Shown here: one piece after another, positions 4,499 through 56,276 of the stretch
How positions within the stretch are numbered: position 1 is the first letter of the stretch
How the letters are laid out: every line of letters starts with the position of its first letter
Virus record (IMG/VR): IMGVR_UViG_3300010163_000008
Span: 1-64,000 of that record
Length of the DNA: 64,000 nucleotides
Origin: a virus
Taxonomy: Duplodnaviria > Heunggongvirae > Uroviricota > Caudoviricetes
Direction: 5' to 3' (one strand)
Position numbers and translations under genes: made by a program
The notes under the pieces: generated by a model
What the model was told of the DNA's origin: nothing
Seen by the model: the letters and a program-made list of their open reading frames with translations, nothing else
Database searches by the model: none

Positions 4499-7399
4499 AT
4501 GCCTTATTTTAAAACTTCATATGAACAAGAGTTTGATGACCTATATATGTACCTTAAATCTAAATATCCTAAAGAAGTATGGAATCAAGAGGGCATTGGG
4601 GAACAAACTGATTTAGGTAAGTTCAGTAAAAAATTTTTTGAAACAGAAATTACAACTACCGCTGACGTGTCTGTAGACGCTAATAGTAATGTGGATGATA
4701 TGACGGTAGTAGCTTATGAGAATGAGCTTGCAAAACCTTCCACACGTCTTAATTCTCTTTATCTACTATGGAAATATGCTCGTAAGTTATATGATACTAA
4801 AGTAGCAAATGATATTGTAGAACGTGAGCTTGCGGGTGATTATTACATCAATGATATGTCAAATGTACAAAAACCTTACTCCTATGATGGAGATACACTG
4901 ATTTGTGTTAAGTGTGAAGGTAAAATTCAGTACATGACAATGAGAGAACTATTTGAAAAATATCAAAGTAGAGTAATAAAGTTAGAGGATAGAGAACAAA
5001 TTAATCTACGAGACGTAGAAATATCAGTAATGGATTCTGGTAAGTTTGTTAGTCTATTGTACTCTATACGCCATAAGACAAATAAGTATATGGTTTGTAT
5101 AGAAACAGGAGATGGACGTTTTTTGTATGTCACCTCTGACCATCCTGTAATTCTTGCAGATGGCACTGAGGTTGAAGCTAGACATATTAAAGTTGGCGAT
5201 ACATTAGCTACAGGGTATACAGGATTCGAGTTTGATACTAAATCTGTAGATAAGGTGATTTACTCATTAATCAATGCTTGTAGTACAGGCGCAGATACAG
5301 AAGCGCTTTGTAGTTTACTTGTTCCAATCTACGACAAGCTTCTTAAGGCTGTAACTACAGTAGTTGGTGAAGGTGAAGAAGAAGTTGTACTAGACCTTGA
5401 TGTTGCATCATATAAGTTTGCACAACAGATTTGTGAGGCATTTAATATATGTGGGGTAAGTTGCGGTATTTATGTAAATAATGCAGGTGACGGATATAAT
5501 GTAAAAGCTACATTTAATACCCCTGTTGATAATAAAGTTAAAGCTATAAACACTCGTGTTTGTACAGATGAGTTTGTATATGATATTACAACATCTACAG
5601 GAACGTTTTATAGCAATGGTTTGAAATGCCATAACTGTTATAACTTTAGTACATATGATGTAATGACCAAAGGACTTCCTTTTGTTAATAAGATTGCTTC
5701 ACGTCCACCTAAACATCTATCTTCATTCTGTGGGCAAATGGTTCACTTTACAAGCTATGCAAGCAATCAGGTTATGGGTGCTGTAGGGCTTGCAGATTTG
5801 CTAATAGTAATGAGCTATTATGTAAAGAAAGAACTTGATACGTTACCTACTAATCCTGATTATGTATGGACATTCGTTAAGCAAGAGTTGCAGAATCTTA
5901 TCTACTCAATGAATCAGCCGTTTAGGGGTGGTCTACAGAGTGGTTTCTATAACGTGAGTGTGTATGATAGTTACTTCCTTGACACACTAATTCCTGATTA
6001 TATCTTTCCTGATGGAACTACACCAGATAAGGCATTGGTACAGAAGATACAAGATATTTTCCTCGACCTTATGAATGAGACGATGAGGATATCGCCAATT
6101 ACATTCCCTGTAACAACTGCTAACTTCTGTATTGATGAAGATAATAATATACTTGATAAAGACTTCCTTGAGTATATTGCAAAGAAGAATCAGGAATGGT
6201 GCTTCATAAACATCTACGCAGGAAATACAGCAACACTAAGCTCATGCTGCTTTGAAGGCAGTCAGCCTGCTATCATTCGTGTTAATGGTACAGTACATTA
6301 TATGCCTCTCAAAGAAATATTTGATATGGTAGACGATAGTGATATGGAAACACTATACGATGGTAGATGGGTTAAAGCACGTCATACACAAGCGTCTACA
6401 AAAAGTAATCTGTATAAGATTACATTAGTGAATGGTAAAACAATGACTGTAACAAAAGACCACCTTCACCCAACAATAAATGGTGTTTTGCCTTCTTCTG
6501 AATTAACTACAGATGATTATATTGAGGTAAATACTAAATCAGTTGAGGGGACACAAAGCAATGGCGTTAAATTGGATTATGAGTCGGGTTATAATCTCGC
6601 AACTTGTGTAGCAAAGAATTTGAACTATTGCTTGATGGATAAATATACTGTGAAGGATAGTAATGGGCAGCGTTGTTTTGCTCCTTCTTGTCTCAATGAA
6701 AGCATTATTTTTAGAAGCGCTATTGTAGATGTTATTAATCAGTCTGGTAATGATAAACGTAAATATGTTCGTACATATTCTAAACAATATGTAGAATCTA
6801 TTGAGATGTTACTTACTTCACTAGGTAGAATATCCTTTATTGAAAAAGATGGTGAAGAGTATGTCATAACATGGGACAAGACTGATTATGACGGTGAGAT
6901 TCGCAAGTGCGACAACAAAACCTATATTAAAATCCAGTCTATAGAGCAAGTAGAGAACAACGAAAAAATGTTTGTGTATTGCTTTGAGATGGACGATAAA
7001 GATAAACCATACTTTGTATTGCCCAACGGTATTGTGACGCACAATTGCCGTCTACGTTCAAATAAAGACAACATGTACCTTGGTTATTCAAATAGCTTTG
7101 GTTCTGGTGGCACACAGATTGGTAGTTTTGGCGTAGTTACTGTAAATCTTCCTCGTATAGCTATTAAGGCTAAAGGCAACTATGACAAGTTTATGGAGCT
7201 ACTTGATGATACTGTAGAACTTGCTATTAAGATTAACCACGTAAAACGCTATATACTTAAGAAACGAATTGATTGCGGAGCATTACCACTGTATACACAT
7301 GGTTTTATGAATCTACAAAAACAATACGCAACGGTGAACCGTATCACTCGCCGTCATATTACTTTACCATCTCGTCAATGGGGTCACAAGTGTGGCTAA
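4499..7399 (+). CDS. nrdD: anaerobic (class III) ribonucleoside-triphosphate reductase NrdD, exon 1, containing two in-frame inteins; true 5' exon probably ends near 7391
   Basis: Flanking sequence continues as NrdD in the ORF at 8014-8490 (glycyl radical RVVGF and CPVCG zinc ribbon). Two Hint-domain insertions each show block B TxxH (SDHPV, KDHLH) and a terminal HN followed by Cys (CHN|C, THN|CRLRS). Confidence 0.75.
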   Translation: MPYFKTSYEQEFDDLYMYLKSKYPKEVWNQEGIGEQTDLGKFSKKFFETEITTTADVSVDANSNVDDMTVVAYENELAKPSTRLNSLYLLWKYARKLYDTKVANDIVERELAGDYYINDMSNVQKPYSYDGDTLICVKCEGKIQYMTMRELFEKYQSRVIKLEDREQINLRDVEISVMDSGKFVSLLYSIRHKTNKYMVCIETGDGRFLYVTSDHPVILADGTEVEARHIKVGDTLATGYTGFEFDTKSVDKVIYSLINACSTGADTEALCSLLVPIYDKLLKAVTTVVGEGEEEVVLDLDVASYKFAQQICEAFNICGVSCGIYVNNAGDGYNVKATFNTPVDNKVKAINTRVCTDEFVYDITTSTGTFYSNGLKCHNCYNFSTYDVMTKGLPFVNKIASRPPKHLSSFCGQMVHFTSYASNQVMGAVGLADLLIVMSYYVKKELDTLPTNPDYVWTFVKQELQNLIYSMNQPFRGGLQSGFYNVSVYDSYFLDTLIPDYIFPDGTTPDKALVQKIQDIFLDLMNETMRISPITFPVTTANFCIDEDNNILDKDFLEYIAKKNQEWCFINIYAGNTATLSSCCFEGSQPAIIRVNGTVHYMPLKEIFDMVDDSDMETLYDGRWVKARHTQASTKSNLYKITLVNGKTMTVTKDHLHPTINGVLPSSELTTDDYIEVNTKSVEGTQSNGVKLDYESGYNLATCVAKNLNYCLMDKYTVKDSNGQRCFAPSCLNESIIFRSAIVDVINQSGNDKRKYVRTYSKQYVESIEMLLTSLGRISFIEKDGEEYVITWDKTDYDGEIRKCDNKTYIKIQSIEQVENNEKMFVYCFEMDDKDKPYFVLPNGIVTHNCRLRSNKDNMYLGYSNSFGSGGTQIGSFGVVTVNLPRIAIKAKGNYDKFMELLDDTVELAIKINHVKRYILKKRIDCGALPLYTHGFMNLQKQYATVNRITRRHITLPSRQWGHKCG
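4880..5635 (+). mobile_element. intein 1 in NrdD (approx; N-terminal boundary at SYDGDTLI or CVKCEG)
   Basis: block A-like S/C-x-x-x-D-T-L-I, block B VTSDHPV, C-terminal FYSNGLKCHN then +1 Cys; about 245 aa with a central ~130 aa insert. Confidence 0.55.
6248..7045 (+). mobile_element. intein 2 in NrdD (approx)
   Basis: begins at the second Cys of TATLSSCC, block B VTKDHLHPT, ends IVTHN followed by CRLRS extein; about 266 aa with a central insert that may be a degenerate homing endonuclease. Confidence 0.55.
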
Positions 7400-8550: not shown

Positions 8551-8898
8551 ATGGCAATTAGAATTAATACTACTGAGATTTTAGCTAATCTTTTAGGTAG
8601 TGATAATATGTTTCCCGGTGCTCGTATTTCAGACCATATATTAAAGAAATTTGAATATAACCTTGATTTCTTAATTCCCGGTCATATCTATTATGAAGAT
8701 GACGACAAAGAGAGGGAAAAAGCAGTCAATAAGTTCGATTTCTGTTGTAGATGGATAGATTGTGATGGCGAAAAGGTAATACAGGTTACGACTACTGATA
8801 GCAAACCAAACCGCAACTATTACAATGACAGGTTGGCAAAATTTGTAGGGGAGATACTTCCTAAATTTGCTGATGATTTCATAGAAAAATATCTGTAA
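8551..8898 (+). CDS. hypothetical protein
   Basis: ORF with ggaggt RBS. Confidence 0.3.
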   Translation: MAIRINTTEILANLLGSDNMFPGARISDHILKKFEYNLDFLIPGHIYYEDDDKEREKAVNKFDFCCRWIDCDGEKVIQVTTTDSKPNRNYYNDRLAKFVGEILPKFADDFIEKYL

Positions 8899-8974: not shown

Positions 8975-9745
8975 ATGTCACGATATAAGATTGGAGCAAC
9001 AGATGGAGGGGACGCAGGACTTGATTTATCTTGGGTTTATAGGCTGAATGATGTAGATGGAGCAGTCGTTATTACTAAAAATATTACTCCATTATTTCAA
9101 GAAGCAGTCTTAGCAAATAAAGATAAGCTCATTGTTCATGCAACAATAACAGGTTTTGGTGGAACAAAGATAGAACCTAACGTACCCAAGGTGGATGATA
9201 ATTTTGATGCTCTTGCTACATTAATCAGCAATGGGTTTCCACAAGCTAAAATAACTATCCGTATCGACCCTATTATACCAACACCAAAAGGAATACAAAG
9301 AGCGTTCAGCATATTTAAAAAAGGCATTGACAATGGGTTCTCAAGGTTTAGAGTAAGTATTATTGATATGTACCCACACGTTAGAGAGCGTTTTAAAGCC
9401 GCAGGCTTACCGTTACCGTATGGCGATGAGGGATTTTCTCCAAGCACAGAACAAATTAAGGCTGTAGATGATATGTTAACGGCTGTACTTACATACTGTA
9501 AAACAAAAAGTAATACGCCTAGAATTGAGTGTTGTGCCGAGCCAAAGTTAAAAAATGCGATTCAGTGTGGATGTATCGGTGGATTTGATTTAATGCTTTT
9601 AGGGCTTAATCCGTATGAGAGTAACGATGTTGGGTATCAGCGTAAACATTGTATGTGTTATTCTGGTAAGACAGAGTTGTTAAAATCTAAAATTCCATGT
9701 TCTCATGGTTGTATATATTGCTTTTGGAAAGGAGTAACAAAATGA
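8975..9745 (+). CDS. hypothetical protein with C-terminal cysteine cluster (CMCYSG ... CSHGCIYC)
   Basis: ORF; Cys-rich C-terminus suggests metal or Fe-S binding. Confidence 0.3.
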   Translation: MSRYKIGATDGGDAGLDLSWVYRLNDVDGAVVITKNITPLFQEAVLANKDKLIVHATITGFGGTKIEPNVPKVDDNFDALATLISNGFPQAKITIRIDPIIPTPKGIQRAFSIFKKGIDNGFSRFRVSIIDMYPHVRERFKAAGLPLPYGDEGFSPSTEQIKAVDDMLTAVLTYCKTKSNTPRIECCAEPKLKNAIQCGCIGGFDLMLLGLNPYESNDVGYQRKHCMCYSGKTELLKSKIPCSHGCIYCFWKGVTK

Positions 9746-42925: not shown

Positions 42926-43399
42926 CTAATCTTTTTCTTTTGAGTATACTTGCGGCATATGTTCTTTATGAGTAAACAAGGTATAATGTGGCATATAATC
43001 TCCAAATATTAAACATCGCAAGTAATCGTCTATAATAATAGCCAATATAGCAACTACAATCCATAGTAAAAAGAATTGAGGACATATTTGTCCCATAATA
43101 TTGAAGGGCATATTAGAATAATCCCACACTCCCCAACCTAGTTTGATATTGATAATATAACCACAAATAAACTCTAATGCTGTTATATCAACAGCACCAA
43201 TTAGACCTTGCCTCAACAAGCCCATATTCCAAGGAATAACTTCATTTATCATACCTATACTAATAAATAGTATTGCTCCAAGCAGTACCATTGTCCAGTG
43301 GCTTCTACCTCTGAATAAGACTTCTAGCGTACAGTATGTACTACCACCAAACCAAAATAAGAGTAGATTCTTACTTAGCAGGTTTAGTGACTGCTTCAT
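42926..43399 (-). CDS. four-helix membrane protein (lysis-associated, function unknown)
   Basis: four hydrophobic segments. Confidence 0.35.
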   Translation of the reverse strand: MKQSLNLLSKNLLLFWFGGSTYCTLEVLFRGRSHWTMVLLGAILFISIGMINEVIPWNMGLLRQGLIGAVDITALEFICGYIINIKLGWGVWDYSNMPFNIMGQICPQFFLLWIVVAILAIIIDDYLRCLIFGDYMPHYTLFTHKEHMPQVYSKEKD

Positions 43400-43910
43400 T
43401 ATAATCTACCGTAATACCTAGTGCTTCTTCAATAGTGGTAGCATTACGAATAGCAACTTCTTTAGATTGCTGATAAGATACCATTGGTTCTACATAAGCT
43501 GCAATAGAAAGGGCTAGTGCAGTAATTTCCTCAAAGGTAAATTCTACACATTCATCACCTGTAGTATTCCATTTAAGCGTTTTAGGAACACCAGCGGCTA
43601 CTGAAAGCTGATATGTAGCAATAGCATTGGCAAGTAGAGATTGCTTTTCAAATGTAACAGAATAAGTCTTATTATTAGTAGCATCTACATAAGGATTATT
43701 AGCTAGGAACGATTCAAGGAGAGCTTTACTCTTTAGTATTTGTGCAGTCTTAACACCTTCAAGAGCTTTAGTCTCATCTTTGATAAGTTCAACATATTGT
43801 TCAACAGTGATAAAACCCTTAATAAGTGCATTACCTAGTTGTTCATCTGTACAAATACCATTTTCTCTTAATACAGAGATATTATTATAAAAATTTACTG
43901 CTGTAGGCAT
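43371..43910 (-). CDS. hypothetical protein
   Basis: ORF. Confidence 0.25.
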   Translation of the reverse strand: MPTAVNFYNNISVLRENGICTDEQLGNALIKGFITVEQYVELIKDETKALEGVKTAQILKSKALLESFLANNPYVDATNNKTYSVTFEKQSLLANAIATYQLSVAAGVPKTLKWNTTGDECVEFTFEEITALALSIAAYVEPMVSYQQSKEVAIRNATTIEEALGITVDYNEAVTKPAK

Positions 43911-44019: not shown

Positions 44020-44670
44020 ATGACACAAACGGAAGTTCGTCAGAAGAAGATTTATGGTTATTGCCGTGTATCTACAAAGGAACAAAACCTCGACCGACAA
44101 CTTATCGCAATGAAAGCAGAAAACATCCCTGAAAGTAATATCTACTGCGACAAACAATCTGGTAAAGACTTTGAACGTAAGAACTTTAAAAAGTTAGTAC
44201 GAAAGTTAAAATCAGGCGACACCTTAGTAATTATGTCAATAGACCGATTAGGAAGAGACTATGATGCTATAGGACAAATGTGGCGGCATTTAGTACTTGA
44301 AAAGAATGTATGTATCAAAGTACTTGATATGCCTATACTTACTACTACAGATAATAGCCTTATTAATCGTCTGTTGTCGGATATCATTTTGCAACTGCTT
44401 GCTTATGTTGCTCAAACCGAAAGAGAGAACTTACTTAAAAGACAAGCTCAAGGCATTGAAGCTGCTCGTGCAAGAGGTGTACAATTCGGTAGACCTAAGA
44501 TTGAAGTCTGTGATGATTTTAAGCAAATCGTCATTGATTACAAAATGCGCAAATATACATTAAAAGAAGCGGTTGCGAAATCCGGTATGTCCCAAAGAAC
44601 ATTTTATAGACGTTCTAATGAACTTTGGGCTGAGATAGGTTCAGAATATGAATCGTGTGAGGGGGTTTAA
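44020..44670 (+). CDS. small serine recombinase of the resolvase/invertase (Hin/Gin/Cin/Min) family
   Basis: YGYCRVSTKEQNLDRQ catalytic-Ser motif, DTLVIMSIDRLGRD, C-terminal HTH (GMSQRTFYRR); 216 aa. Confidence 0.8.
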   Translation: MTQTEVRQKKIYGYCRVSTKEQNLDRQLIAMKAENIPESNIYCDKQSGKDFERKNFKKLVRKLKSGDTLVIMSIDRLGRDYDAIGQMWRHLVLEKNVCIKVLDMPILTTTDNSLINRLLSDIILQLLAYVAQTERENLLKRQAQGIEAARARGVQFGRPKIEVCDDFKQIVIDYKMRKYTLKEAVAKSGMSQRTFYRRSNELWAEIGSEYESCEGV

Positions 44671-45707: not shown

Positions 45708-45789
45708 TCCTTTCTTATGTAGATAATATATTTTGCCGTACTCTAATATTCAGAGTGTTGTGCAAGAGACTGTATTTTCTATTGCAACG

Positions 45790-46296
45790 CCCAAAATATT
45801 ACAATTTGGGAAGCTAATTATACATAATAATACTCTATATTTTGGTAATTCTAGTAATGTTCCAACCAAAGTATCTTCTGATACAGTACCCTCTCACACT
45901 CATTCAGCAAATAACATAACCAGTGGTGTACTTCCAATAGAAAGAGGTGGAACAGGCTATTCTTCTTTATCCTCATTGAAAAGCGCACTTGGTATTACAA
46001 ACAGTTGTACAATAGTAACAGGTAGCTTCACAACTAATTCTAGTTATTCAATGGGCACTAACATAACATTGGGATTTCAACCTAAGTTATTGATTACGAT
46101 AGCAGATAAGTACGCAGATACTGTTGATAATAGAAATATTGCATTAATTGATAATGGACAAGCCATCATAGGATTCTATTGGCTGAATAATAGTGGTAGT
46201 TTAAATTTAGCTACTACAAAACTTACTTCAACAGGAATAGGTAAATATAGTAATCTACTTCCAAGTACTACTTATTATTATGTAGCATTTAGTTAA
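45790..46296 (+). other. silent tail-fibre C-terminal cassette 1 (junction block + variable tip)
   Basis: begins cccaaaatattacaatttggg...ctatattttggtaattc (encodes LQFGKLIIHNNTLYFGNSSNVP), no start/RBS, ends ...YYYVAFS*. Confidence 0.65.
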
Positions 46297-46377
46297 GATA
46301 TTATATAATAAATTGCACTTACAATACCTCATAACTAGTTTGTCGCATTGCAATGTTTTGGCTCATAAATTGCAACG

Positions 46378-47037
46378 CCCAAAATATTACAATCAGGTAA
46401 GATAATTATATGGAATAATACCCTATACTTTGGTAATTCTAGCAATGTTCCTACTAAAGTTTCGTCTGACGCAGTACCTTCTCATACTCATTCAGCTAGC
46501 GATATAACTAGCGGAACGCTCCCTATCACTAGAGGTGGTACGGGTAATACTACTGGATTAGCCGCAAGTGCTACAAAGTTAGCAACTGCTCGAACTATAC
46601 GAGTAAACTTAGGTTCTACAAGTAGTGTTAGCTTTGATGGCACAGCGAATATTACCCCCGGTATAACTGGCACACTCTCTGCTTCATATGGGGGGACAGG
46701 TTGTACTTCTTTGTCTTCATTAAAGAGTGCGTTAGGAATTACAGATGGTTGTACAATTACTACAGGCACTTTTACTACTACTTCTGGGGGTAGTAGTGGT
46801 AAAGTAACTCTAGGTTTTCGACCTAAGCTTCTTATTGCTGTATGTAATCAAGATGGCAACAATCAAAACGGTAAGATTTTTTTATCTATTGATATTGGTA
46901 ATACTATTGTAGGTATAAGATGGGTAAACGATTATGCTGGTGCATCTTGCGGGTCATCAGTACTTACTTCTACAGGGTTTAATAGTATAAATTATTTGTG
47001 GACTAATGAAACCTATTCTTACCTTGTATTAAGTTAA
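46378..47037 (+). other. silent tail-fibre cassette 2
   Basis: same junction block (QSGKIIIWNNTLYFGNSSNVP), open frame to 47037, ends ...YLVLS*. Confidence 0.65.
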
Positions 47038-47112
47038 TAGTATCAGATTGCATTCACAACCTTACATAATTAATTTGCCGCATTGCAACGTCTTGGTCTG
47101 TAGATTGTATCG

Positions 47113-47757
47113 CCCAAAATATTACAATTCGGAAAGGTTATTGTGTGGAATAACCAACTTTATTTTGGCAATTCAAGTAACATACCCACTAAAGTATCTT
47201 CTGATACAGTGCCTGCACATTATCACTCAGCAAGTGATATAACCAGTGGTATATTATCTACTAGTCGGGGTGGGACAGGCAATGCTAATGGATTAGCTAC
47301 TAGTGCCACCAAATTGGCGACTGCTAGGAATATAAGGGTTAATTTGGATAGTACTAGCTATGGAAGCTTCGATGGGACTGCGGACGTAGCTCCCGGAATT
47401 ACTGGAACGTTATCTGCTAGTCATGGCGGTACAGGTTATACATCACTATCTTCACTTAAAAGTGCTTTAGGTATCTCAAGTAGTGGACAATGGACATATG
47501 GAACATTTACATGGTCAAAATCAACTGCCAAGACAGTCACTTTAGGCTATAGACCGGGATTAGTATTCTTAGTAATGGATAGAATATATCCTTGGGTTAT
47601 CATCTCTAATTATGGACAATGCAGTTATTTTTACACGTTATCTAGTAGCACACCAAATATAGGAGGAAGTGATATAACTAGCACAGGATTCACCTTAGAT
47701 GCCAATAGTAGTCTAATCTCAACGACATATGTAGACTATGTAGCCTTTGAAAGTTAA
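47113..47757 (+). other. silent tail-fibre cassette 3
   Basis: junction block (FGKVIVWNNQLYFGNSSNIP), ends ...YVAFES*. Confidence 0.65.
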
Positions 47758-47840
47758 TCACAATTTAAGAATATTTGCACTCATTTTATCCCGTATGATT
47801 AGTTTGTCACATTGCAATATCATAACTCACAAAAATCATA

Positions 47841-48594
47841 ACCTAAAATATTACAATTCGGTAAGTTAATTATTTACAACAACCAACTATATTTTGGCAA
47901 TAGTAGCAACCAACCAGTGACCGTCTCACCTACAAGCATATCAGCAAGCAACATTACTTCCGGTACATTTTCTACCGACAGATTGCCTACTGTCCCTATT
48001 GCAAAAGGCGGGACTGGTGCTACTGTTGCGTCTACGGCATTAAGCAATCTCGGTGGATTTTCTAGCGCCGGAGGTACTATTTCTGGTGCTGTAAATATCT
48101 CAGGCAAACTTGATGTACAAAATAATGCTATGCACATTGGGTCAGGAAGTAATGGGGCAAAGTTGAACTTTGGCGACGGTGATTATGTTTATTTATATGA
48201 AAGTACCGACGACCATCTATATATAAAAGCTGATAAAGGATTACACTTACAGTGTGGTTCAAATAGCAGTTATGATATTACTGTTCAACATGGAAGTGAC
48301 CCTGCTATATCACTACTTGGTGGTGGAGGCAGTAGTAAAATGGCTACTGGTAGTTTTTATTATAGTGGTTCAACTCAATCTGTAAATGTTGGGTTTCAAC
48401 CAGTATTAGTTATATTTACAGGCGCTGGGCAGTCTCTCTTAATAGGCATATTAAACAATGACGAAATACGAGCATGTAAAAATGGCAGTTGGCAAACCGC
48501 GTCAGTAGATACATATACAAGTAGTACTGGATTTAAAATAACATCAGGGGCTGTATCTGGCACTCAAACTATAAAGTATGCTGCTTTTGGCTAA
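47841..48594 (+). other. silent tail-fibre cassette 4
   Basis: junction block (FGKLIIYNNQLYFGNSSNQP), ends ...KYAAFG*. Confidence 0.65.
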
Positions 48595-48630
48595 TAGAAA
48601 TTGCATTCACGGTTGCCCTTCTTGCGTATA

Positions 48631-49298
48631 CCAATATCTTACAACATGGCAAAGTAATTATATGGAACAATAACCTGTATTTTGGCAACAGTAGCAATAT
48701 CCCACAATCTATTTCTGTAGATTTATCTTCTTATGCTACTACTAGCTATGTAAGTAATAATTATGCCGCTAAGTCTCATACACATTCTGATTATGCCACA
48801 AAGAACAATCCCACTTTGACAGGAACTATACACTTAAATAGCACTGATATAAGGTTAGGTGCAAATAGTAGTAGTTCAAATGTTAAAGTCAAATTCGGAG
48901 ATGGTGAATATATCTATATAAATGAAGATGTAGACGACCATCTTGTATTTTATTCTAAAAAAGGTATAGACTTTACCAGTCAAAGTAACTCTGGTACTTT
49001 TACCTTCAATGGTAATGCTATAGGCGGCGCTTCTGTACAAGTAGTAACTGGATATGGACGAGCCGCGCAGAGCGGAGGTATTAATTTAGGATTCAAACCT
49101 AAAGTAGTTGTTCTTGCAACTGCTAATAACAATGAAACAAATGTTATTGGTGGCATATTATCTCAAGGATATTCTGTGTTATTCGGAATGGATAATAGGG
49201 TTAGCCAAGGTACTAGTAATGTTAATTCTAGTGGATTTACTGTTTATGGTAGGGCTAGTGATTCAAATAGTTATTATTATTATGTAGCATTCTCATAA
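48631..49298 (+). other. silent tail-fibre cassette 5
   Basis: junction block cttacaacatggcaaagtaattatatggaacaa (LQHGKVIIWNNNLYFGNSSNIP), ends ...YYYVAFS*. Confidence 0.65.
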
Positions 49299-49351
49299 TT
49301 GAGCAATCACTTCTGACAAGTTGCAACATTGCAAGATTGTAAAGTCCTTTC

Positions 49352-50019
49352 CCATAATCTTACAACATGGCAAACTCATAATATGGAATAACACTCTATA
49401 TTTTGGCAATTCCTCTAATATCCCAACACAAGTTACACAAGATTTATCCACTTATGCTACCACTACATGGGTTAATAATAATTTTGCGGCTACAAGTCAT
49501 ACTCATTCTACATATGCGCCTAAAGATAGCCCTACACTAACAGGTAATATTCATCTAAATAGTGCATCAATACGATTAGGCGCAAATAGTTCTAATTCTT
49601 TATGTAAAATAAATATAGGAGATGGGGATTATATTCATTTTTACGAATACGAAGATGATAAATTAGAAATTAAAGGTAGCACAATTAATATGGCTACTTC
49701 TAATTTTTTAATTAATGGTACAGCTTTAGGTAGCGACAAGCAAGCAGTCAGTGGAACTATAACTAGTACAGGTTCAACCATGACAGTTAATGTAGGCTTT
49801 CAACCAACGTTGGCATTCGTTGTATGCCGTGGTGGAGCTTCGGGAAGATTGGGCTGGATAATTTATGAATCAGGTAGTACATATTGTACCTATTTAAAGA
49901 CTTCCTTGTCTCAAGGTCTTTCCAGTACGTCTGCGTCAGGTCGTCCGTCTAATGGTTTTTATATACCACAAAATTCTTTTGATGATGGTTGGCCATTGTA
50001 TTATACAGCTTTTAAATAA
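49352..50019 (+). other. silent tail-fibre cassette 6
   Basis: junction block (LQHGKLIIWNNTLYFGNSSNIP), ends ...YYTAFK*. Confidence 0.65.
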
Positions 50020-50067
50020 ACAATCTTAATTTATCAAGTTGCAATATTATAGCGTATAAAACCCATC

Positions 50068-50737
50068 TCCCAAAATATTACAACATGGCAAAATCATAAT
50101 TTGGAATAATACGCTGTACTTTGGCAATTCCAGTAATCAACCTAAAGCTATATCTGTAGATTTATCCAGCTATGCAACAACAACATGGGTAAATAATAAT
50201 TTTGCTACCACTAGTCACACTCATTCAACCTACGCGCCTATAAACAATCCTACACTAACAGGCACTATCCATCTTAATAGCGCATCTATACGATTAGGAG
50301 CTAATAGTTCTAACTCTGCTTGTAAAGTTAATATAGGCGACGGCGATTATATTCATTTATATGAGTATGAGGATGATAAGCTAGAGATTAAGGGAAGTAC
50401 TATTAATATGGCTACTTCTAATTTTTTGGTTAATGGGTCTTCATTAAGTAGCGGTGGCAAGATAGTTACTGGAACTGCTTCTGGTTCTACAATAAGAAGC
50501 CCCGGTATTAATGTAGGTTTTCAACCAACAATTGTTATTTTAATGGCTAAAACAGAAGCTACAAATAATAACACATTTTGTATGGTCTTTAATGATTACA
50601 CTGTCTTAATGTTTAGTAACTCAACCCCTGTACCTTCATTTACAAACACTGGGACAAATTTTATAACAAGCACTGGATTTAAAGTATCTAGCTGGTTACA
50701 GTCTAGCTATAATTGGAGTTATGTTGCTTTCGGTTAA
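50068..50737 (+). other. silent tail-fibre cassette 7
   Basis: junction block (LQHGKIIIWNNTLYFGNSSNQP), ends ...SYVAFG*. Confidence 0.65.
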
Positions 50738-50778
50738 TATGAGGTTGTGAACACACGATTAATCTCATCATTCATTAT

Positions 50779-51932
50779 CCAAAGTCTTACCTTTTGGCAA
50801 GTTGCTCACCTATCAGAACGCACTGTATATGGGCAACTCATCTAATCTTCCCCAAGCTGTTGGTGGAGGTGGTAAAAAGTATGCTAGTGTTGTGATAGGA
50901 ACTTCCACAGCTGGATGGAAAAAGGAAGATTGTGATTACCTTTGTGATGGAACAAACGACCAAGAAGAGTTTAATACTGCCATATCAACCTTTGATAAAA
51001 CGATTGGTGGCTCTATATTTGTACTGCCGGGGACTTATAATATAACTGCTAGGATAACTAACAGACCGGGTAATGAATGGGATAATGCACCTGTAGAAAT
51101 ATATGGGACTCCTCAGACTATATTAAAACGTTATTTTAATGACGTTAACCAGTATCAAGACAATGGACTTATAAGATTAACTACTGCTAGCATAACCTCA
51201 TATTGTAGTGTCCATGACTTATGTATAGATGGTAATAACGGCACTTACAATAGTGCCTATAATAGAGCCATAAACATATCATATAATGGGTGGGTATATA
51301 ATACTTATATATTTAATACTGCTAAGGGAATAAATGCAGGACAATATGGAGCAGTTTATGGTAATGTATTGGAAGATGTTACACAAGAAGGCATACAAGC
51401 TGGTCCATTAACCAGCGTTATAGGGAATACCTTTAATGCTAATGGCGCGAATGCATACGGTGCTGACAGTTTTGGCATTTATAGTCCAAGATTCGCAGTC
51501 GTAATAGGAAATACAATCAGTGCAGAATATAAAACAGGCATTCTTGTTGAGGATGCCGCGGTATGCATTGGTAATCATGTAGACAGGTTTGGTCAATATG
51601 GTATTAAAATTACTATTGCCAACAGTAGTCTTGTAGCAGGTAATATTGTAGATACTTGTGGCGAAACTGATAAAGAAGCTAATACATATCAGTGTTATAT
51701 AGATGGAACAAATACGACTTATAAAAACGATGGAAATCTAATTATTGGGAATGTTTTTAATCAAAGCAAAAGATATAATAGCGATACGGTTTCATATCCA
51801 AATAATGCATATTCTATTTATATAACATCTGGAGCTACTAACAATCTCATTGCGTGCAACAACATTTATGGTAAAAACTATACAAACCAGGGTGGCTCCA
51901 CTAATACCTTTTATAATAATAAATATAACTAA
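50779..51932 (+). other. silent tail-fibre cassette 8, long, beta-helix (pectate-lyase-like) depolymerase-type tip
   Basis: divergent junction (LPFGKLLTYQNALYMGNSSNLP), then repetitive G-N-x-h-x-x beta-helix-like coils (IGNTFNANGANAYGADSFGIYSPRFAVVIGNTISAEY ... IGNHVDRFGQYGIKITIANSSLVAGNIVD). Confidence 0.6.
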
Positions 51933-51944
51933 GGAGGTATAATA

Positions 51945-52316
51945 ATGCAATATCTTTTTAGAATGTATGGTAATGAAATACAGGTTATTCGATATATGAC
52001 AACCCATACAGAGATTGAATATATATATAATGAAGAAACACATATGCGTGAACCTCATGAATATGAAGCAAAATATTATTTTACCACATTAGAACAAGCT
52101 CAAAAGGACGGCGAGCCTATAAAACTCGACTATGAACCTTTTGAATGGCTCGATGGTATTTTAACAAAAGATACTGAAAATACCTATGCAGAAGCTATAA
52201 AAATTTATGAAATGGGTGAAGAAGCGTATAAAAAATCACTTTTACAAGAAAATGCTCAAACAAATGAGCAGTTGTATTCTGACGTATCTCAATGTATATT
52301 GAGTATGATTAGCTAA
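51945..52316 (+). CDS. putative tail-fibre assembly chaperone for cassette 8
   Basis: small acidic ORF immediately 3' of cassette 8 with aggagg RBS; arrangement mirrors Mu Sv-U. Confidence 0.35.
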   Translation: MQYLFRMYGNEIQVIRYMTTHTEIEYIYNEETHMREPHEYEAKYYFTTLEQAQKDGEPIKLDYEPFEWLDGILTKDTENTYAEAIKIYEMGEEAYKKSLLQENAQTNEQLYSDVSQCILSMIS

Positions 52317-52608
52317 TTTGAGATAATATGAGATTGTCTGTAACCGTTGGTTCGTAAACAAATGGTTCGGGAGGTGGAATAAGGTCAGGACGTGGAGTTA
52401 CTTTAGTGATGGTAACTCCATCTTCTGCAAATTCTACATCAAGATAAGGAGCATTATCTATAATATCACGTTCAAATTCTGGTGGTACTGGAACCCATTC
52501 TGTGGTAGTACCATCTTCTAGCGTTTCATTTTCATTCCAAACTGTTGGATATACACGATGGGATTGACTTTCAGCCCATTTATGATTCTTTTCAAAAATT
52601 GCACTCAT
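52309..52608 (-). CDS. putative tail-fibre assembly chaperone for cassette 9
   Basis: small ORF 3' of the - strand cassette, aaggaggg RBS before ATG at 52608; its stop overlaps the + strand chaperone stop in palindrome attagctaat. Confidence 0.3.
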   Translation of the reverse strand: MSAIFEKNHKWAESQSHRVYPTVWNENETLEDGTTTEWVPVPPEFERDIIDNAPYLDVEFAEDGVTITKVTPRPDLIPPPEPFVYEPTVTDNLILSQIS

Positions 52609-52669
52609 AATTATGCAAACCCTCCTTAAATTTATCATTATAATAATTATAAAAATACATGGCAAACTA

Positions 52670-53199
52670 TTAAGGTCTAAATGCTATATAATAATAAGAT
52701 TGTCCAGTTTTTACCAACTGTAACCCATTAAGATTAAATCCGCTAGAAGTAATCTTCTTAGATGAAGTCCCCACAGGGTCGCCAATTCCAACTGTTGCGC
52801 CGCGTGTAAGTATTAATGAGTTTCTACATGGCGAATCGTCCATCAAAGAAATAGCACCAATTAATACTAACACTGGTTGAAATCCTAATGATACATTAGC
52901 TTGACCACTGAATGTCCCAGTAACATATATATAATCAGATATATTACTAGAAGTTAGATATTCACTATGAGTATGATTAATAGACGCATAATTACTATGT
53001 GTATGAGAAGCAGTAGCGTATACTCCATTATGATTATGCGTAGTTAAAGCATAATTATTCAACTTAGTCGTCAAGGCAGAAGTCGTTACATAATTGCTTA
53101 AATCTACATTTGGGGCAACAGTAGTTGGTGTATTGCTGGAATTTCCGAAGTAGAGTTGATTATTGTAAATAATTAACTTGCCATACTGTAAAATATTAG
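52670..53199 (-). other. silent tail-fibre cassette 9 (- orientation)
   Basis: junction block on - strand (LQYGKLIIYNNQLYFGNSSNTP) begins directly after the stop of the expressed fibre gene; ends ...YYYIAFRP*. Confidence 0.6.
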
Positions 53200-53229
53200 T
53201 AAATGCAAGTCTGCAAGTATATTGCTTAT

Positions 53230-54129
53230 TTATTCGAATGCGGCGTACACCACAGAAATAGTTCCTCCACCTGTATAGCAACCTGATGCTAAATAGAAAC
53301 CATTGGTTCCTGTAGCAGCACTATACGAAGCAATATTACCGCCCATCATTAATGCTTCAGTACCATTTTTTGTTATGGTATTAATAGCGGCATTACCAGA
53401 TGAGTACGATTGAGCAATAACAAATGTTGGTGTGAAATCTAAACTGACCCATCTATTAGACGACAATTTGCTTAAGCTCAATGACCCTGTAGTAAAGTTT
53501 TTACTGCTACCGCCTATAGCTTTACCATTAATGGTGACATCACCGCTACTCTTTAGATTTATGCCACCAGAGGCATAGATTTCAAGATGGTCGTCAGAAC
53601 TTTCAGTAAAATGTACTCTATCACCATCACCTATCTTAATAACAGAGAAGGATGATGTAGATGTAGTACCGAGTCTAATATCAGCATTGTTTAGATGTAC
53701 TGCTCCATTGACCGTCAGAGCACCTGTAATCGTTCCTCCGCTGGTGGGTAGTGCCCCTATATTACTACAGGCACTAGACGCGCTTGTAGCCCCTGTACCG
53801 CCTCTAGCAAGGGATAATGTACCGCTGGTGATATCAGAAGCGGAATGAGTATGAGACGGAACAGTAGTAGGGGTGACAGTTGTAGGCACATTTGAAGAAT
53901 TGCCAAAATATAATTGATTGTTCCATATTATGAGTTTGCCATGTTGTAAGGTTGTTGGCAAGGCTGCTGCTGTGCAAGTTTCGGGTAGCTTGGCTTGCAA
54001 AATCGTTTGCAAATTGTTCATTTTTCCGTTGAGGTCGCTTGCAACTTGGGCGCTTGATTCGCCATTCACAATGTCTAATTTATAAGTGCCGCCACTAGTA
54101 ATATCAATGCTAGTTGTAAAAGCTGCCAT
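53230..54129 (-). CDS. expressed tail fibre gene: constant N-terminal part + currently fused variable tip
   Basis: ATG 54127-54129 with RBS; constant region then TLQHGKLIIWNNQLYFGNSSNVP junction (about 53900-53962) identical in pattern to all cassettes; ends ...VVYAAFE*. Confidence 0.7.
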   Translation of the reverse strand: MAAFTTSIDITSGGTYKLDIVNGESSAQVASDLNGKMNNLQTILQAKLPETCTAAALPTTLQHGKLIIWNNQLYFGNSSNVPTTVTPTTVPSHTHSASDITSGTLSLARGGTGATSASSACSNIGALPTSGGTITGALTVNGAVHLNNADIRLGTTSTSSFSVIKIGDGDRVHFTESSDDHLEIYASGGINLKSSGDVTINGKAIGGSSKNFTTGSLSLSKLSSNRWVSLDFTPTFVIAQSYSSGNAAINTITKNGTEALMMGGNIASYSAATGTNGFYLASGCYTGGGTISVVYAAFE

Positions 54130-54212
54130 TAGAACATCAATCCTTTCTTAGAAAATTAATGGAGCCATACATAATATAGCATGGCTCATCGTATATATTC
54201 AATATTAACATT

Positions 54213-55046
54213 TTAAGCACGTAACATTTGGTCATGTTCTGCCAACAAATCTATAATTGACTTTGAGAATGAAGCACCACCAAATACCTTAGTGCCCTTC
54301 GCAAGTTGAGGTTGTACAACATCGTACAATTCTTGTACATCTAACTCTAGTACGGTTAAATCAGGTAGACTATCTAATACATCAGACAATTGTGATATTT
54401 GACTTTCCAAACTACTCAATCTTGATTTAATACTATTTAATTGAGATGTGACAGAAGAGTCGATAGTATTTTGTAATTCATTCATAGAATTATTTGTTTC
54501 GGTGCGTAAATTACTTATCGCTGTTGTGTTCCCTTCTATCTTTGTATTTAGTTCGGTAATATCGCCATCTATGCGGTCTACGTTTCTTAGTACCTCTTGC
54601 CTTAGTTCGTTTAATTCAGAGTTAAGACCTGTCATGAAAACATTTGGGAAACCCATAACTGCTATAACAAATCCTCCGGTTGGACTAATACCACCTGTTG
54701 TTAAAATAAGTACTCCTTGCCCAACTACAGGATTATATCCAGAATAGTTAGGGAATGTCATTACTTTTGAAGTGTTACATACAACCTGCATGATTTTCCC
54801 GTTACTATCTACTTTGGTAGCTTCTACATCTTGTGGGAATACTGCTTTTACTGCATTGTTTTCAGTGTGCCCATAACATACCATAGTATAAATACGAGGA
54901 AGATTAATACAGTTGTCTATTTTTTTTTGCGCAATATCTTGTATTAAATTATGTAATGCAACTAGTTCACTAGCTCTTTGGTCTGCTATAGGCACATCGG
55001 GCTGTTGCATTAAATTATCATACGCTACTGTTCTTTGTTCTGGCAT
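54213..55046 (-). CDS. tail/baseplate-associated structural protein with coiled coil
   Basis: position between tail genes and fibre gene; C-terminal heptad region. Confidence 0.3.
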   Translation of the reverse strand: MPEQRTVAYDNLMQQPDVPIADQRASELVALHNLIQDIAQKKIDNCINLPRIYTMVCYGHTENNAVKAVFPQDVEATKVDSNGKIMQVVCNTSKVMTFPNYSGYNPVVGQGVLILTTGGISPTGGFVIAVMGFPNVFMTGLNSELNELRQEVLRNVDRIDGDITELNTKIEGNTTAISNLRTETNNSMNELQNTIDSSVTSQLNSIKSRLSSLESQISQLSDVLDSLPDLTVLELDVQELYDVVQPQLAKGTKVFGGASFSKSIIDLLAEHDQMLRA

Positions 55047-55058
55047 TAATATCCCTCC

Positions 55059-56276
55059 TTACGTACTGCTTGTAGAACCTTCACGAAGTTCATAGTATGG
55101 TAAATCACTAACATTACTTGCCGTAATCGACATGGTACTTGAAGCGTCTAATGGTAAAGTAATAGATTGTATGATAAATCTCTCTCTCGTATAACCAAAA
55201 TATTCATCTTCAATAGTTATGATTTTATTTACATCTAAATGAGGCAGTAATGAACACTCAAACGTAATCGCAGATTGTAATATAGACTTCTGATTAAGCA
55301 AATATTCTGCATAGTCTTTAGCATTTTCTTCTGAACCTAGATTTGAAGATTCTTCATAATATGCCTTTCTTCCTATATTCTCTATTGATGTAGATGAAAT
55401 AGGATTATGATTTTCTGCTGTATAGCTATAGATATCAGTATCATTTGAATTACTGCTACTCACTGTAACACAATTAATTACTTCTGCTGGGGATAATGTA
55501 AGTACAGGATTTATATATTCAGCAGTCTTGTCTGTAAAATCCCACAATGAATCTTGTGTAGAATAAGATAAGTCTAAAGTACCATTGTCGTATCGTAAAT
55601 GACCATCAGTATCATAATAAGTGTCCGCGCCCATAATGTTTCCTACTTCTATAAAAATTTCAGAAGCATAAGTGCTAGGAGATTTATCAATCTCATATGG
55701 ACATTTCCATGAGAGTAATTCATTATCTACAATAGGTGTAGACCTATCCATTATATTAGCATTTCCCATATCAGCCCATAATGTTTGTTCAATAATCTCC
55801 ACTATAGATGTGCCTTCTGGTATGACATGGGTATAACTATATTGGTTGTACCCTGTCTCTGCACCTAAAAATCCGTATTTGTCTACACCATTAAGCGTTA
55901 CTGTCTTTTGTGTTCTATCTATACTAGGGTCAAGCATACAAAATACACCTTGTGAAAACCAATATACATCATCGGTATATATATCCTTTAACCCTACAAA
56001 TAACTTAAATCTCCTATTTATCCATATTAAACCATCTATCTTAGGAATGAATATACCATCATTATCTATAAGAGTAAAAGTACAAGTGCGTCTAACTCCT
56101 TGCTGATAGTTGATAGATATCGAACCAGCATTATCAGCAGTAATATAGTCGGTAATATCTAATATTACATTTTCATAATGGTCTAATAATTCTATACGAT
56201 ACATAGGATAAATCTCAGGTCTTGACGCAATTTCTCTATATTTAGAGTCTGCTACATTCATGTATTCAACAGCCAA
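55059..56276 (-). CDS. phage tail/baseplate structural protein
   Basis: position downstream of tape measure and large tail protein. Confidence 0.3.
   Translation of the reverse strand: MAVEYMNVADSKYREIASRPEIYPMYRIELLDHYENVILDITDYITADNAGSISINYQQGVRRTCTFTLIDNDGIFIPKIDGLIWINRRFKLFVGLKDIYTDDVYWFSQGVFCMLDPSIDRTQKTVTLNGVDKYGFLGAETGYNQYSYTHVIPEGTSIVEIIEQTLWADMGNANIMDRSTPIVDNELLSWKCPYEIDKSPSTYASEIFIEVGNIMGADTYYDTDGHLRYDNGTLDLSYSTQDSLWDFTDKTAEYINPVLTLSPAEVINCVTVSSSNSNDTDIYSYTAENHNPISSTSIENIGRKAYYEESSNLGSEENAKDYAEYLLNQKSILQSAITFECSLLPHLDVNKIITIEDEYFGYTRERFIIQSITLPLDASSTMSITASNVSDLPYYELREGSTSST

Follow-up and report, generated by a model that had tools for sequence, protein, structure and literature searches.

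Organization of the invertible fibre locus

The sequence under study is a 64,000-nucleotide stretch of a Caudoviricetes genome (IMG/VR record IMGVR_UViG_3300010163_000008, positions 1 to 64,000; hereafter the window), in which the region at 50779-53199 holds two facing tail-fibre tip segments, cassettes 8 and 9, and between them two small convergent genes, described here as ORF123 and ORF99. An earlier reading of this region, made from sequence only, had proposed that both small genes encode assembly chaperones specific to their cassettes and co-inverted with them, as in the G segment of phage Mu. The minus-strand tail module of the window ends with a 299-amino-acid (aa) fibre gene, downstream of which lie ten alternative 3′ gene segments, a CHAP/SH3 endolysin gene, a 216-aa serine invertase gene and a DUF4376 gene. 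The expressed fibre gene (53230-54129, minus strand) starts with ATG and comprises a constant N-terminus, recombination site S10 (53885-53957; 84.4 bits) and the body of cassette 10. The invertase (44020-44670, plus strand) carries PF00239 (1e-27) together with a helix-turn-helix HTH_28, and matches phrog_125, 'DNA invertase', at 2e-48. The arrangement is that of a serine-invertase inversion system, with a small serine recombinase adjacent to inverted, in-frame crossover sites that join alternative 3′ parts to one 5′ part.

Every cassette opens with a copy of a 73-nucleotide (nt) repeat encoding ...LQxGKLIIWNNxLYFGNSSN, and in all ten the frame is open from the repeat to the stop codon, in the frame of the constant part. 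A position-weight scan detected exactly ten such recombination sites in the window, eight on the plus strand and two on the minus strand. Silent cassettes 1-7 occupy 45790-50737 (plus strand), with site copies at 45791, 46379, 47114, 47843, 48631, 49352 and 50070. Site S8 (50779-50851, plus strand; 68.5 bits), with an inferred crossover core TTAC at 50787-50790, is the most diverged of the ten copies, and S9 (53127-53199, minus strand; 81.3 bits; inverted repeat I3) is direct relative to the expressed site and inverted relative to S1-S8. Both the copy at 50779, for all its divergence, and the one at 53127-53199 on the minus strand are thus real.

Cassette 8 (50778-51932, plus strand) is a promoterless, start-less 3′ gene segment; its listed open reading frame (ORF) covers 50802-51932 (plus strand, 376 aa), and the frame open from the repeat has its first codon at 50778 and runs for 384 codons. 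Cassette 9 (52670-53200, minus strand; 176 codons, open from site to stop) is of the common tip type ending ...YYYIAFRP and is homologous to cassettes 1-7 and 10. ORF123 (51945-52316, plus strand; 123 aa, isoelectric point 4.45) is small and acidic, has a GGAGG ribosome-binding site and starts after a gap of 12 nt from the cassette 8 stop. ORF99 (52309-52608, minus strand, ATG at 52608; 99 aa, isoelectric point 4.17) is acidic and proline-rich, has an AGGAGGG ribosome-binding site and follows cassette 9 after 61 nt. Both are real genes ending I-S-stop, and both lie where they had been placed before, at 51945-52316 (plus) and 52608-52309 (minus).

The position-weight scan scored no full or partial site inside 50860-53100, and because no recombination site lies within it, the S8-S9 block (50779-53199), comprising cassette 8, ORF123, ORF99 and cassette 9, is predicted to flip whole, as a single unit between two facing sites. 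The Mu G geometry proposed by the sequence-only reading therefore stands, in that neither cassette is separated from its small ORF by a recombination site. The same reading held that cassettes 1-7 lack a private chaperone; this is literally true, as the gaps between them, only 37-86 nt, leave no room for a private ORF, but it overlooked a constant gene of chaperone type outside the segment. This 179-aa DUF4376 protein (43371-43910, minus strand; PF14301 at 27 bits against a cut-off of 25) is encoded beyond the endolysin and invertase genes and is a candidate for a constant, general tail-fibre chaperone.

Crossover mapping

Dyad symmetry across the 73-nt repeat proved weak (6.4 of 12), and the crossover was subsequently placed by comparing L016 and L017, two sister contigs that are 97-98% identical and at least two inversions apart. 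At both junctions, parentage switches within a shared TTAC (TAC) at repeat positions 9-12, in the Leu-Gln codons TTA CAA; the positions concerned are 8563-8566, 9245-9318 and 11673-11746 in L016, and 1999-2072 and ~2755 in L017. Because TTAC, at the repeat's 5′ edge, holds the breakpoints, most of the 73-nt unit is cassette-borne coding sequence and not crossover site: everything 3′ of TTAC travels with the cassette, most of the repeat included. The block containing ORF99 is intact across the L016/L017 inversions, which, for the equivalent block of a sister phage, supports the sequence-only reading that cassette and small gene are inverted together. The right half of S8, TTACCTTTTGGCAAGTT, is identical to that of the L016 Peptidase_G2 site, which is seen recombined in L017, and because of this match S8 is probably active. 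From the site orientations, we infer the order in which the block could be brought into expression. Starting from the present state, inversion between S10 and S8 would bring cassette 8 into the expressed position and make ORF123 the gene that follows it on the same transcript; a second inversion, at S9, would then lead to expression of cassette 9, followed by ORF99. ORF99 sits after whichever cassette ends the co-oriented run.

At the expressed site, the TTAC core lies within a perfect 6-bp inverted repeat, TTGCCA-N14-TGGCAA (53936-53961, minus strand), which looks like a 26-bp invertase site; in the silent cassettes only its right half is well kept. Decayed remnants of the constant part, with stop codons and TTGCAA-containing motifs, are found upstream of each silent cassette (including 45733-45790). 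The TTGCAA motifs were considered as crossover points and rejected, since they are cut off from the cassettes by stop codons and lie upstream of the mapped breakpoints. A 17-mer, ACATGGCAAACTATTAA (52657-52673, plus strand), has 15 of its 17 positions in common with a part of the repeat; it overlaps the −35 element of a promoter-like site of ORF99 and is conserved in the related contig L005. As a cryptic site between cassette 9 and ORF99 it was likewise rejected, given its low position-weight score, its absence from a second relative, L003, and the fact that it does not cover the TTAC core; it is probably a relic.

Cassette 8 encodes a beta-helix tip

Cassette 8 alone scores under Pfam thresholds. 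It has 268 homologues at E≤1e-3, with ~33% identity across ~95% of the query, and among the 120 listed most carry PF13229 (Beta_helix) or PF05048 (NosD), and some PF12708 (Pectate_lyase_3). Compared with solved structures, a profile of 47 sequences matched NosD (1e-19), the mannuronan epimerases AlgG and AlgE4 (1e-13 to 1e-10) and tailspike 3 (TSP3) of phage CBA120. The AlphaFold2 model of cassette 8 (mean predicted local distance difference test, pLDDT, 78; predicted template modeling score, pTM, 0.81) consists of stacked short repeating strands, for which Foldseek returned probability 1.00 to Geobacillus virus E2 ORF18, AlgE4, the RbmB lyase, and the Sf6, HK620 and CBA120 tailspikes. These closest structural matches include lyases and epimerases, and also non-enzymatic adhesins. 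Homologues, profile, model and Foldseek thus agree with the beta-helix fold suspected earlier, and identify cassette 8 as a right-handed parallel beta-helix of the kind seen in tailspikes or polysaccharide lyases.

ORF123 belongs to a family coupled to beta-helix spikes

A word-indexed search with ORF123 recovered only two relatives, in L003 and L005, each 125 aa long and ~50% identical; in both contigs the gene follows a cassette-8-like beta-helix segment and converges with an ORF99 copy through the same 8-nt overlap. Within the window's own lineage, in L003 and L005, the N-terminal half of ORF123 diverges alongside the spike body, and the C-terminal helix is nearly identical. An exhaustive HMMER search with a three-sequence profile revealed a far larger family of 70 cluster representatives at E≤1e-3, mostly 110-140 aa, with the consensus FRMYGRxIxxxRYxVxYT ... 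LDTxxYEWLDGIEVxDVPDTYAEAxKIYEMG ... EQLRADIDFLxxMTGVEL. None of the 48 members scanned has a Pfam family for the ORF123-like domain or a Caudo_TAP match, and four members match phrog_18126, a PHROG of unknown function. A single-sequence scan of IMG/VR with ORF123 found no match, and tblastn against GenBank phages found no homologue of ORF123 or of two typical family members.

The genomic context of this family is highly uniform. In 20 of 20 loci, the ORF123-family gene starts a few to 26 nt after a gene for a large protein with the C-terminal sequence ...GKNY..G.GNTF.NNKY(N/Q/E), as in cassette 8. These loci comprise the window, L003, L005, six distinct IMG/VR phages with a locus G+C content of 45-57%, the fused forms in L022-L024 and eight Clostridia genomes or metagenome-assembled genomes (Acutalibacter, Neglectibacter, Ruminiclostridium and unclassified Bacillota). 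When eight of the upstream proteins were compared with cassette 8 by blastp, all matched at E 1e-17 to 1e-38; three of the eight align over most of cassette 8 at 31-35% identity, and the remainder over shorter stretches. Moreover, neither cassette 8 nor ORF123 is present in the sister phage L016, where a Peptidase_G2 tip takes their place; cassette and gene are therefore gained or lost as one module. The identical gene order in all 20 loci indicates that ORF123 is a dedicated partner of the beta-helix tip. The proposal of cassette-specific partners is upheld for ORF123, which tracks its tip throughout, and fails for ORF99, which is found after several tip types and after a non-invertible fibre gene.

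ORF99 is a general gene of the fibre module

Copies of ORF99 with ~90% identity follow a cassette-9-like tip (window, L005), a cassette-10-like tip (L016-L020) and a Peptidase_G2 tip (L003). In L001 and L021, two non-invertible relatives with a single fibre gene, that gene is followed by a homologue, P0005 (57% identical, with in-frame indels), giving four different upstream genes for ORF99 and its homologue in total. Across divergent relatives, substitutions are mostly synonymous (ratio of nonsynonymous to synonymous changes, pN/pS, 0.13-0.28), a pattern that points to purifying selection. Because its copies follow several tip types and a non-invertible fibre gene, ORF99 is a conserved fibre-module gene of this phage lineage and not private to cassette 9; our best guess is a general fibre accessory protein. 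No relatives were found in IMG/VR, metagenome and genome scans, nor was there a tblastn match among GenBank phages.

Just upstream of ORF99 lies a promoter-like TTGCCA-17-TATAAT (52637-52665, minus strand), the best match in 50600-54300 at 11 of 12 positions, although the total of such sites is not above the shuffled expectation. ORF99 may be transcribed independently, from a promoter of its own.

In L001 and L021, a DUF4376 homologue is found two genes after the ORF99-like gene. These non-invertible relatives also retain, from fibre gene to ORF99-like gene, an intervening 68-aa cassette remnant ending ...YTYLTFR, and have a convergent 59-aa ORF ending PKPEPEPEP (L001 9672-9878 and 10329-10508).

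ORF99 and ORF123 show no homology to one another in profile comparison past the last nine residues. There, ORF123 (52292-52316) and the ORF99 family (52309-52335, and the P0005 C-terminus) share the end peptide (L/C)ILS(M/Q)IS, with different serine codons (AGT and TCT). The shared ILS[M/Q]IS end aligns with the usual C-terminal motif of the ORF123 family, other members of which end in ...ADIDFLxxMTGVEL or ...LQMALCDMYEAME. This ending may represent a common docking motif in this phage lineage.

The palindrome at the gene ends

ORF123 and ORF99 converge with an 8-nt overlap, and both terminate in ATT AGC TAA. Their ends form a 10-nt perfect palindrome, ATTAGCTAAT, which extends no further; it is as real and perfect as the sequence-only reading had stated, but its position is 52308-52317, one nucleotide from the 52307-52316 given there. 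Such palindromes are not rare in DNA as AT-rich as this, with 53 perfect 10-nt examples in the window compared with ~89 in mononucleotide shuffles. The palindrome is unchanged in L003 and L005 and absent in L016, where there is no ORF123 and ORF99 ends ATT AGT TAA, with AGT as the serine codon. Two genes ending I-S-stop that overlap tail to tail by 8 nt suffice to explain it, and it is an incidental by-product of packing; no sign of function was found in it. A weak hairpin, TGCTCAAACAAATGAGCA (52253-52270), lies nearby, within the ORF123 coding sequence and ~40 nt beyond the ORF99 stop.

What ORF123 might do

The sequence-only reading had expected homology to Mu U/Tfa. Neither small ORF bears it out: neither matches Caudo_TAP (PF02413) or another named chaperone family, with no Pfam match at E≤0.1, DUF4376 included, and no match to named PHROGs or NCBIfam families. 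The AlphaFold2 model of ORF123 is confident (pLDDT 95.7), has no structural match in PDB or BFVD and does not resemble a solved Tfa or fibre-chaperone fold. Clues to its role come instead from fused relatives. A DUF4376 domain is found at the C-terminus of two longer ORF123 relatives; the fibre chaperones gp27 and gp9 of Alteromonas phages V22 and A5, which have been studied experimentally, end in the same domain (PMC7289586, PMC10579305). In other relatives, the ORF123-like domain is the N-terminal part of larger proteins: a fibre-like one of 519 aa, which also has YadA_head repeats and Peptidase_S74, and two of 228 aa and 270 aa whose additional C-terminal region is CBM5/12-like, by a below-threshold Pfam match in one of them and none in the other. 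The two large fused-form genes whose loci were read lie directly after NNKYN-type spikes. In the 519-aa and CBM5/12-like forms, the domain looks like a structural docking module.

These observations suggest a model in which ORF123 has a chaperone or cap role and binds the spike C-terminus. ORF123 would bind the conserved C-terminal end of the spike, ...GKNY..NTF.NNKYN, would serve as a tip-specific assembly factor or cap, and may stay attached. The common tips (cassettes 1-7, 9 and 10) would most likely use constant factors, namely the DUF4376 gene product and possibly ORF99. When cassette 8 is fused to the constant N-terminus by inversion, the helper would come with it. The data suggest a rule in which constant helpers are shared among the common tips, and an unusual tip comes with a helper of its own, encoded by a co-inverted gene (ORF123) or present as an intramolecular domain (Peptidase_G2).

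Weighing of alternative readings

Taken together, the region is probably the central block of a ten-cassette serine-invertase fibre-switch locus, in which cassette 8 and ORF123 constitute a two-gene spike module widespread in Clostridia phages, ORF99 is a general fibre-module gene and the palindrome is a by-product. Several points weigh against this interpretation. The window's own locus gave no inversion isomer, and the evidence for inversion comes from a sister phage that is ~80-85% identical; S8 is more diverged than every other site; the ORF99 family is tiny; and neither small protein matches a known chaperone family by sequence in Pfam, PHROGs or NCBIfam. If ORF123 and ORF99 were instead two cassette-specific assembly chaperones, exact analogues of Mu U and U′ that are each needed only by the tip of cassette 8 or cassette 9, one would expect what is indeed seen of their position: both are directly downstream of a tip in an indivisible invertible block, ORF123 tracks its tip, and ORF99 follows a cassette-9-type tip in both the window and L005. 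ORF99 speaks against this account. Its ~90% identical copies also follow cassette-10-like tips and a Peptidase_G2 tip, the latter a type that has an intramolecular chaperone domain of its own; the 57% identical homologue follows a fibre gene that is not invertible at all; and cassette 9 shares its type with cassettes 1-7 and 10, none of which is accompanied by a private gene. With no Caudo_TAP/Tfa match for either protein in addition, we regard a pair of private chaperones as unlikely. Less likely by far, to the point where we give it very little credence, is that the palindrome and a conserved core of ~430 bp (52200-52630) form a cis-acting DNA or RNA element, such as a bidirectional terminator, a recombination enhancer or a cryptic recombination site, to which the ORFs are secondary. 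The core is far better conserved than its sharply diverging flanks in the window, L003 and L005, and the weak hairpin at 52253-52270 is terminator-like on both strands. However, the conservation of ORF99 is that of a protein, as seen in its mostly synonymous substitutions (pN/pS 0.13-0.28) and in P0005, which is kept at 57% identity with its indels in frame. The palindrome itself is AT-rich, only 10 nt long, of a kind common in the window and lost in L016, and nothing in the core scores as a site, the mapped crossovers being in TTAC at the cassette 5′ ends.

Within the favored reading of a fibre switch with a spike-plus-partner module, the partner may be a chaperone or an adaptor. The ORF123-like domain as the N-terminus of the 519-aa and CBM5/12-like proteins fits a docking module better than a transient chaperone, which also counts against our preferred reading. 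ORF123 could accordingly be a structural adaptor and not a chaperone, docking permanently on the distal C-terminal end of the spike, with its larger relatives adding a second receptor-binding module and thus producing a branched spike. The YadA_head/Peptidase_S74 and CBM5/12-like fusions, the position of the fused-form genes directly after NNKYN-type spikes and a conserved C-terminal spike motif suited to be a docking site all speak for such an adaptor. The majority of the family, however, are 110-140-aa forms with no extra module, the DUF4376 fusions suggest chaperone biology, and the two roles are compatible with each other, a review of Mu Tfa by North et al. (2019) reportedly describing a chaperone that stays bound; we consider an adaptor that is not a chaperone rather doubtful. 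A synthesis of both roles can be offered tentatively, with slightly more confidence than the adaptor but still short of an even chance. Here, the ORF123 family would be a new class of tailspike-docking protein with a fold unlike solved structures, whose N-terminal domain recognizes the conserved ...GKNY..NTF.NNKYN end shared by a large group of beta-helix spikes in Clostridia phages. It would cap or chaperone the trimer, with the fused forms grafting on a second binding module or fibre, and spike and docking protein would be switched on jointly by inversion as one of ten host-range options.

Relationship to known inversion systems

That a fibre tip and its helper gene can invert together has been familiar from Mu and P1 for decades, and the principle is not new. 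In the Mu G (Gin) and P1 C (Cin) segments, with their Sv-U / U′-S′v layout, inversion joins a constant fibre 5′ part to alternative 3′ parts, as proposed here. The window's block shares with them two convergent arms that each end in a small co-inverted gene, a serine invertase gene nearby and an indivisible block between facing sites. Like Mu U and lambda Tfa, both ORF123 and ORF99 are encoded immediately downstream of a tip and would be inverted with it. Unlike the Mu G and P1 C segments, however, the block sits in an array of eight further cassettes, its small genes are unrelated to U/Tfa with only one of the two being tip-specific, and its two tips, in a Bacillota phage, are of the beta-helix spike and ...YxAF types.

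The locus also resembles Min of the p15B plasmid-prophage and the Rin shufflon of Bifidobacterium prophages, in which many crossover sites shuffle alternative C-termini of receptor-binding proteins behind one constant N-terminus (PMC6109161; PMC9881135). The window and Min have a serine-type recombinase, and Rin has one of the tyrosine type. Compared with both, the window has ten sites, a crossover in the TTAC of Leu-Gln codons, and one cassette that is a two-gene spike-plus-partner module. Set against all of these systems, the locus also stands apart by its cassette count, by combining a two-gene spike module with tips encoded by one gene each, and by a constant DUF4376 gene located outside the segment.

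Two further comparisons concern the helper. V22 gp27 and A5 gp9, the DUF4376 'chaperone caps' (PMC7289586, PMC10579305), are likewise encoded by small genes immediately downstream of a fibre gene, whereas ORF123 lacks DUF4376 and has a beta-helix spike as its partner. In intramolecular Peptidase_S74 and Peptidase_G2 chaperone domains, too, the folding helper comes along with the tip, and the non-standard tip of L016 and L003 is such a Peptidase_G2 cassette. The helper of cassette 8, by contrast, would be a separate polypeptide encoded 12 nt downstream, and not a cleavable domain.

Three elements of this locus are new. The first is a small protein family tied strictly to a single group of beta-helix tailspikes in gut-type Clostridia phages; neither Pfam nor PHROGs has a name for it, and the sequenced phage isolates searched do not contain it. 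The second is the suggested rule by which helpers are allotted to common and unusual tips, and the third is the mapped crossover point for this invertase family. Potential uses include the annotation of receptor-binding modules, the engineering of partner-dependent spikes and the study of host-range switching in metagenomes. The ORF123 family is the part most worth following up.

Neighboring features

The region itself had no blastn match among GenBank phages. For a tail protein at 55059-56276 (minus strand), the nearest cultured relatives, in Thomasclavelia phages TR-TP1 and TR-TP2 and Geobacillus virus E3, share just ~28% amino-acid identity, and the window's phage lineage has no close isolate. 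A terminator-like hairpin (nine pairs, then a T-rich tail) and a promoter-like site lie at 54162-54202 (minus strand), between a 277-aa coiled-coil gene and the fibre gene, which may form its own transcription unit. Beside the endolysin gene, the leader MPYSNIQSVVQE..ATPKIL is common to cassette 1 and the cassette-8-like segment of L005. The tail module of L016 carries an inserted gene of the IS605-family OrfB/TnpB type (5248-6378; PF01385, PF07282), which has a 92-aa gene on one side and a DUF5048 tail gene on the other.

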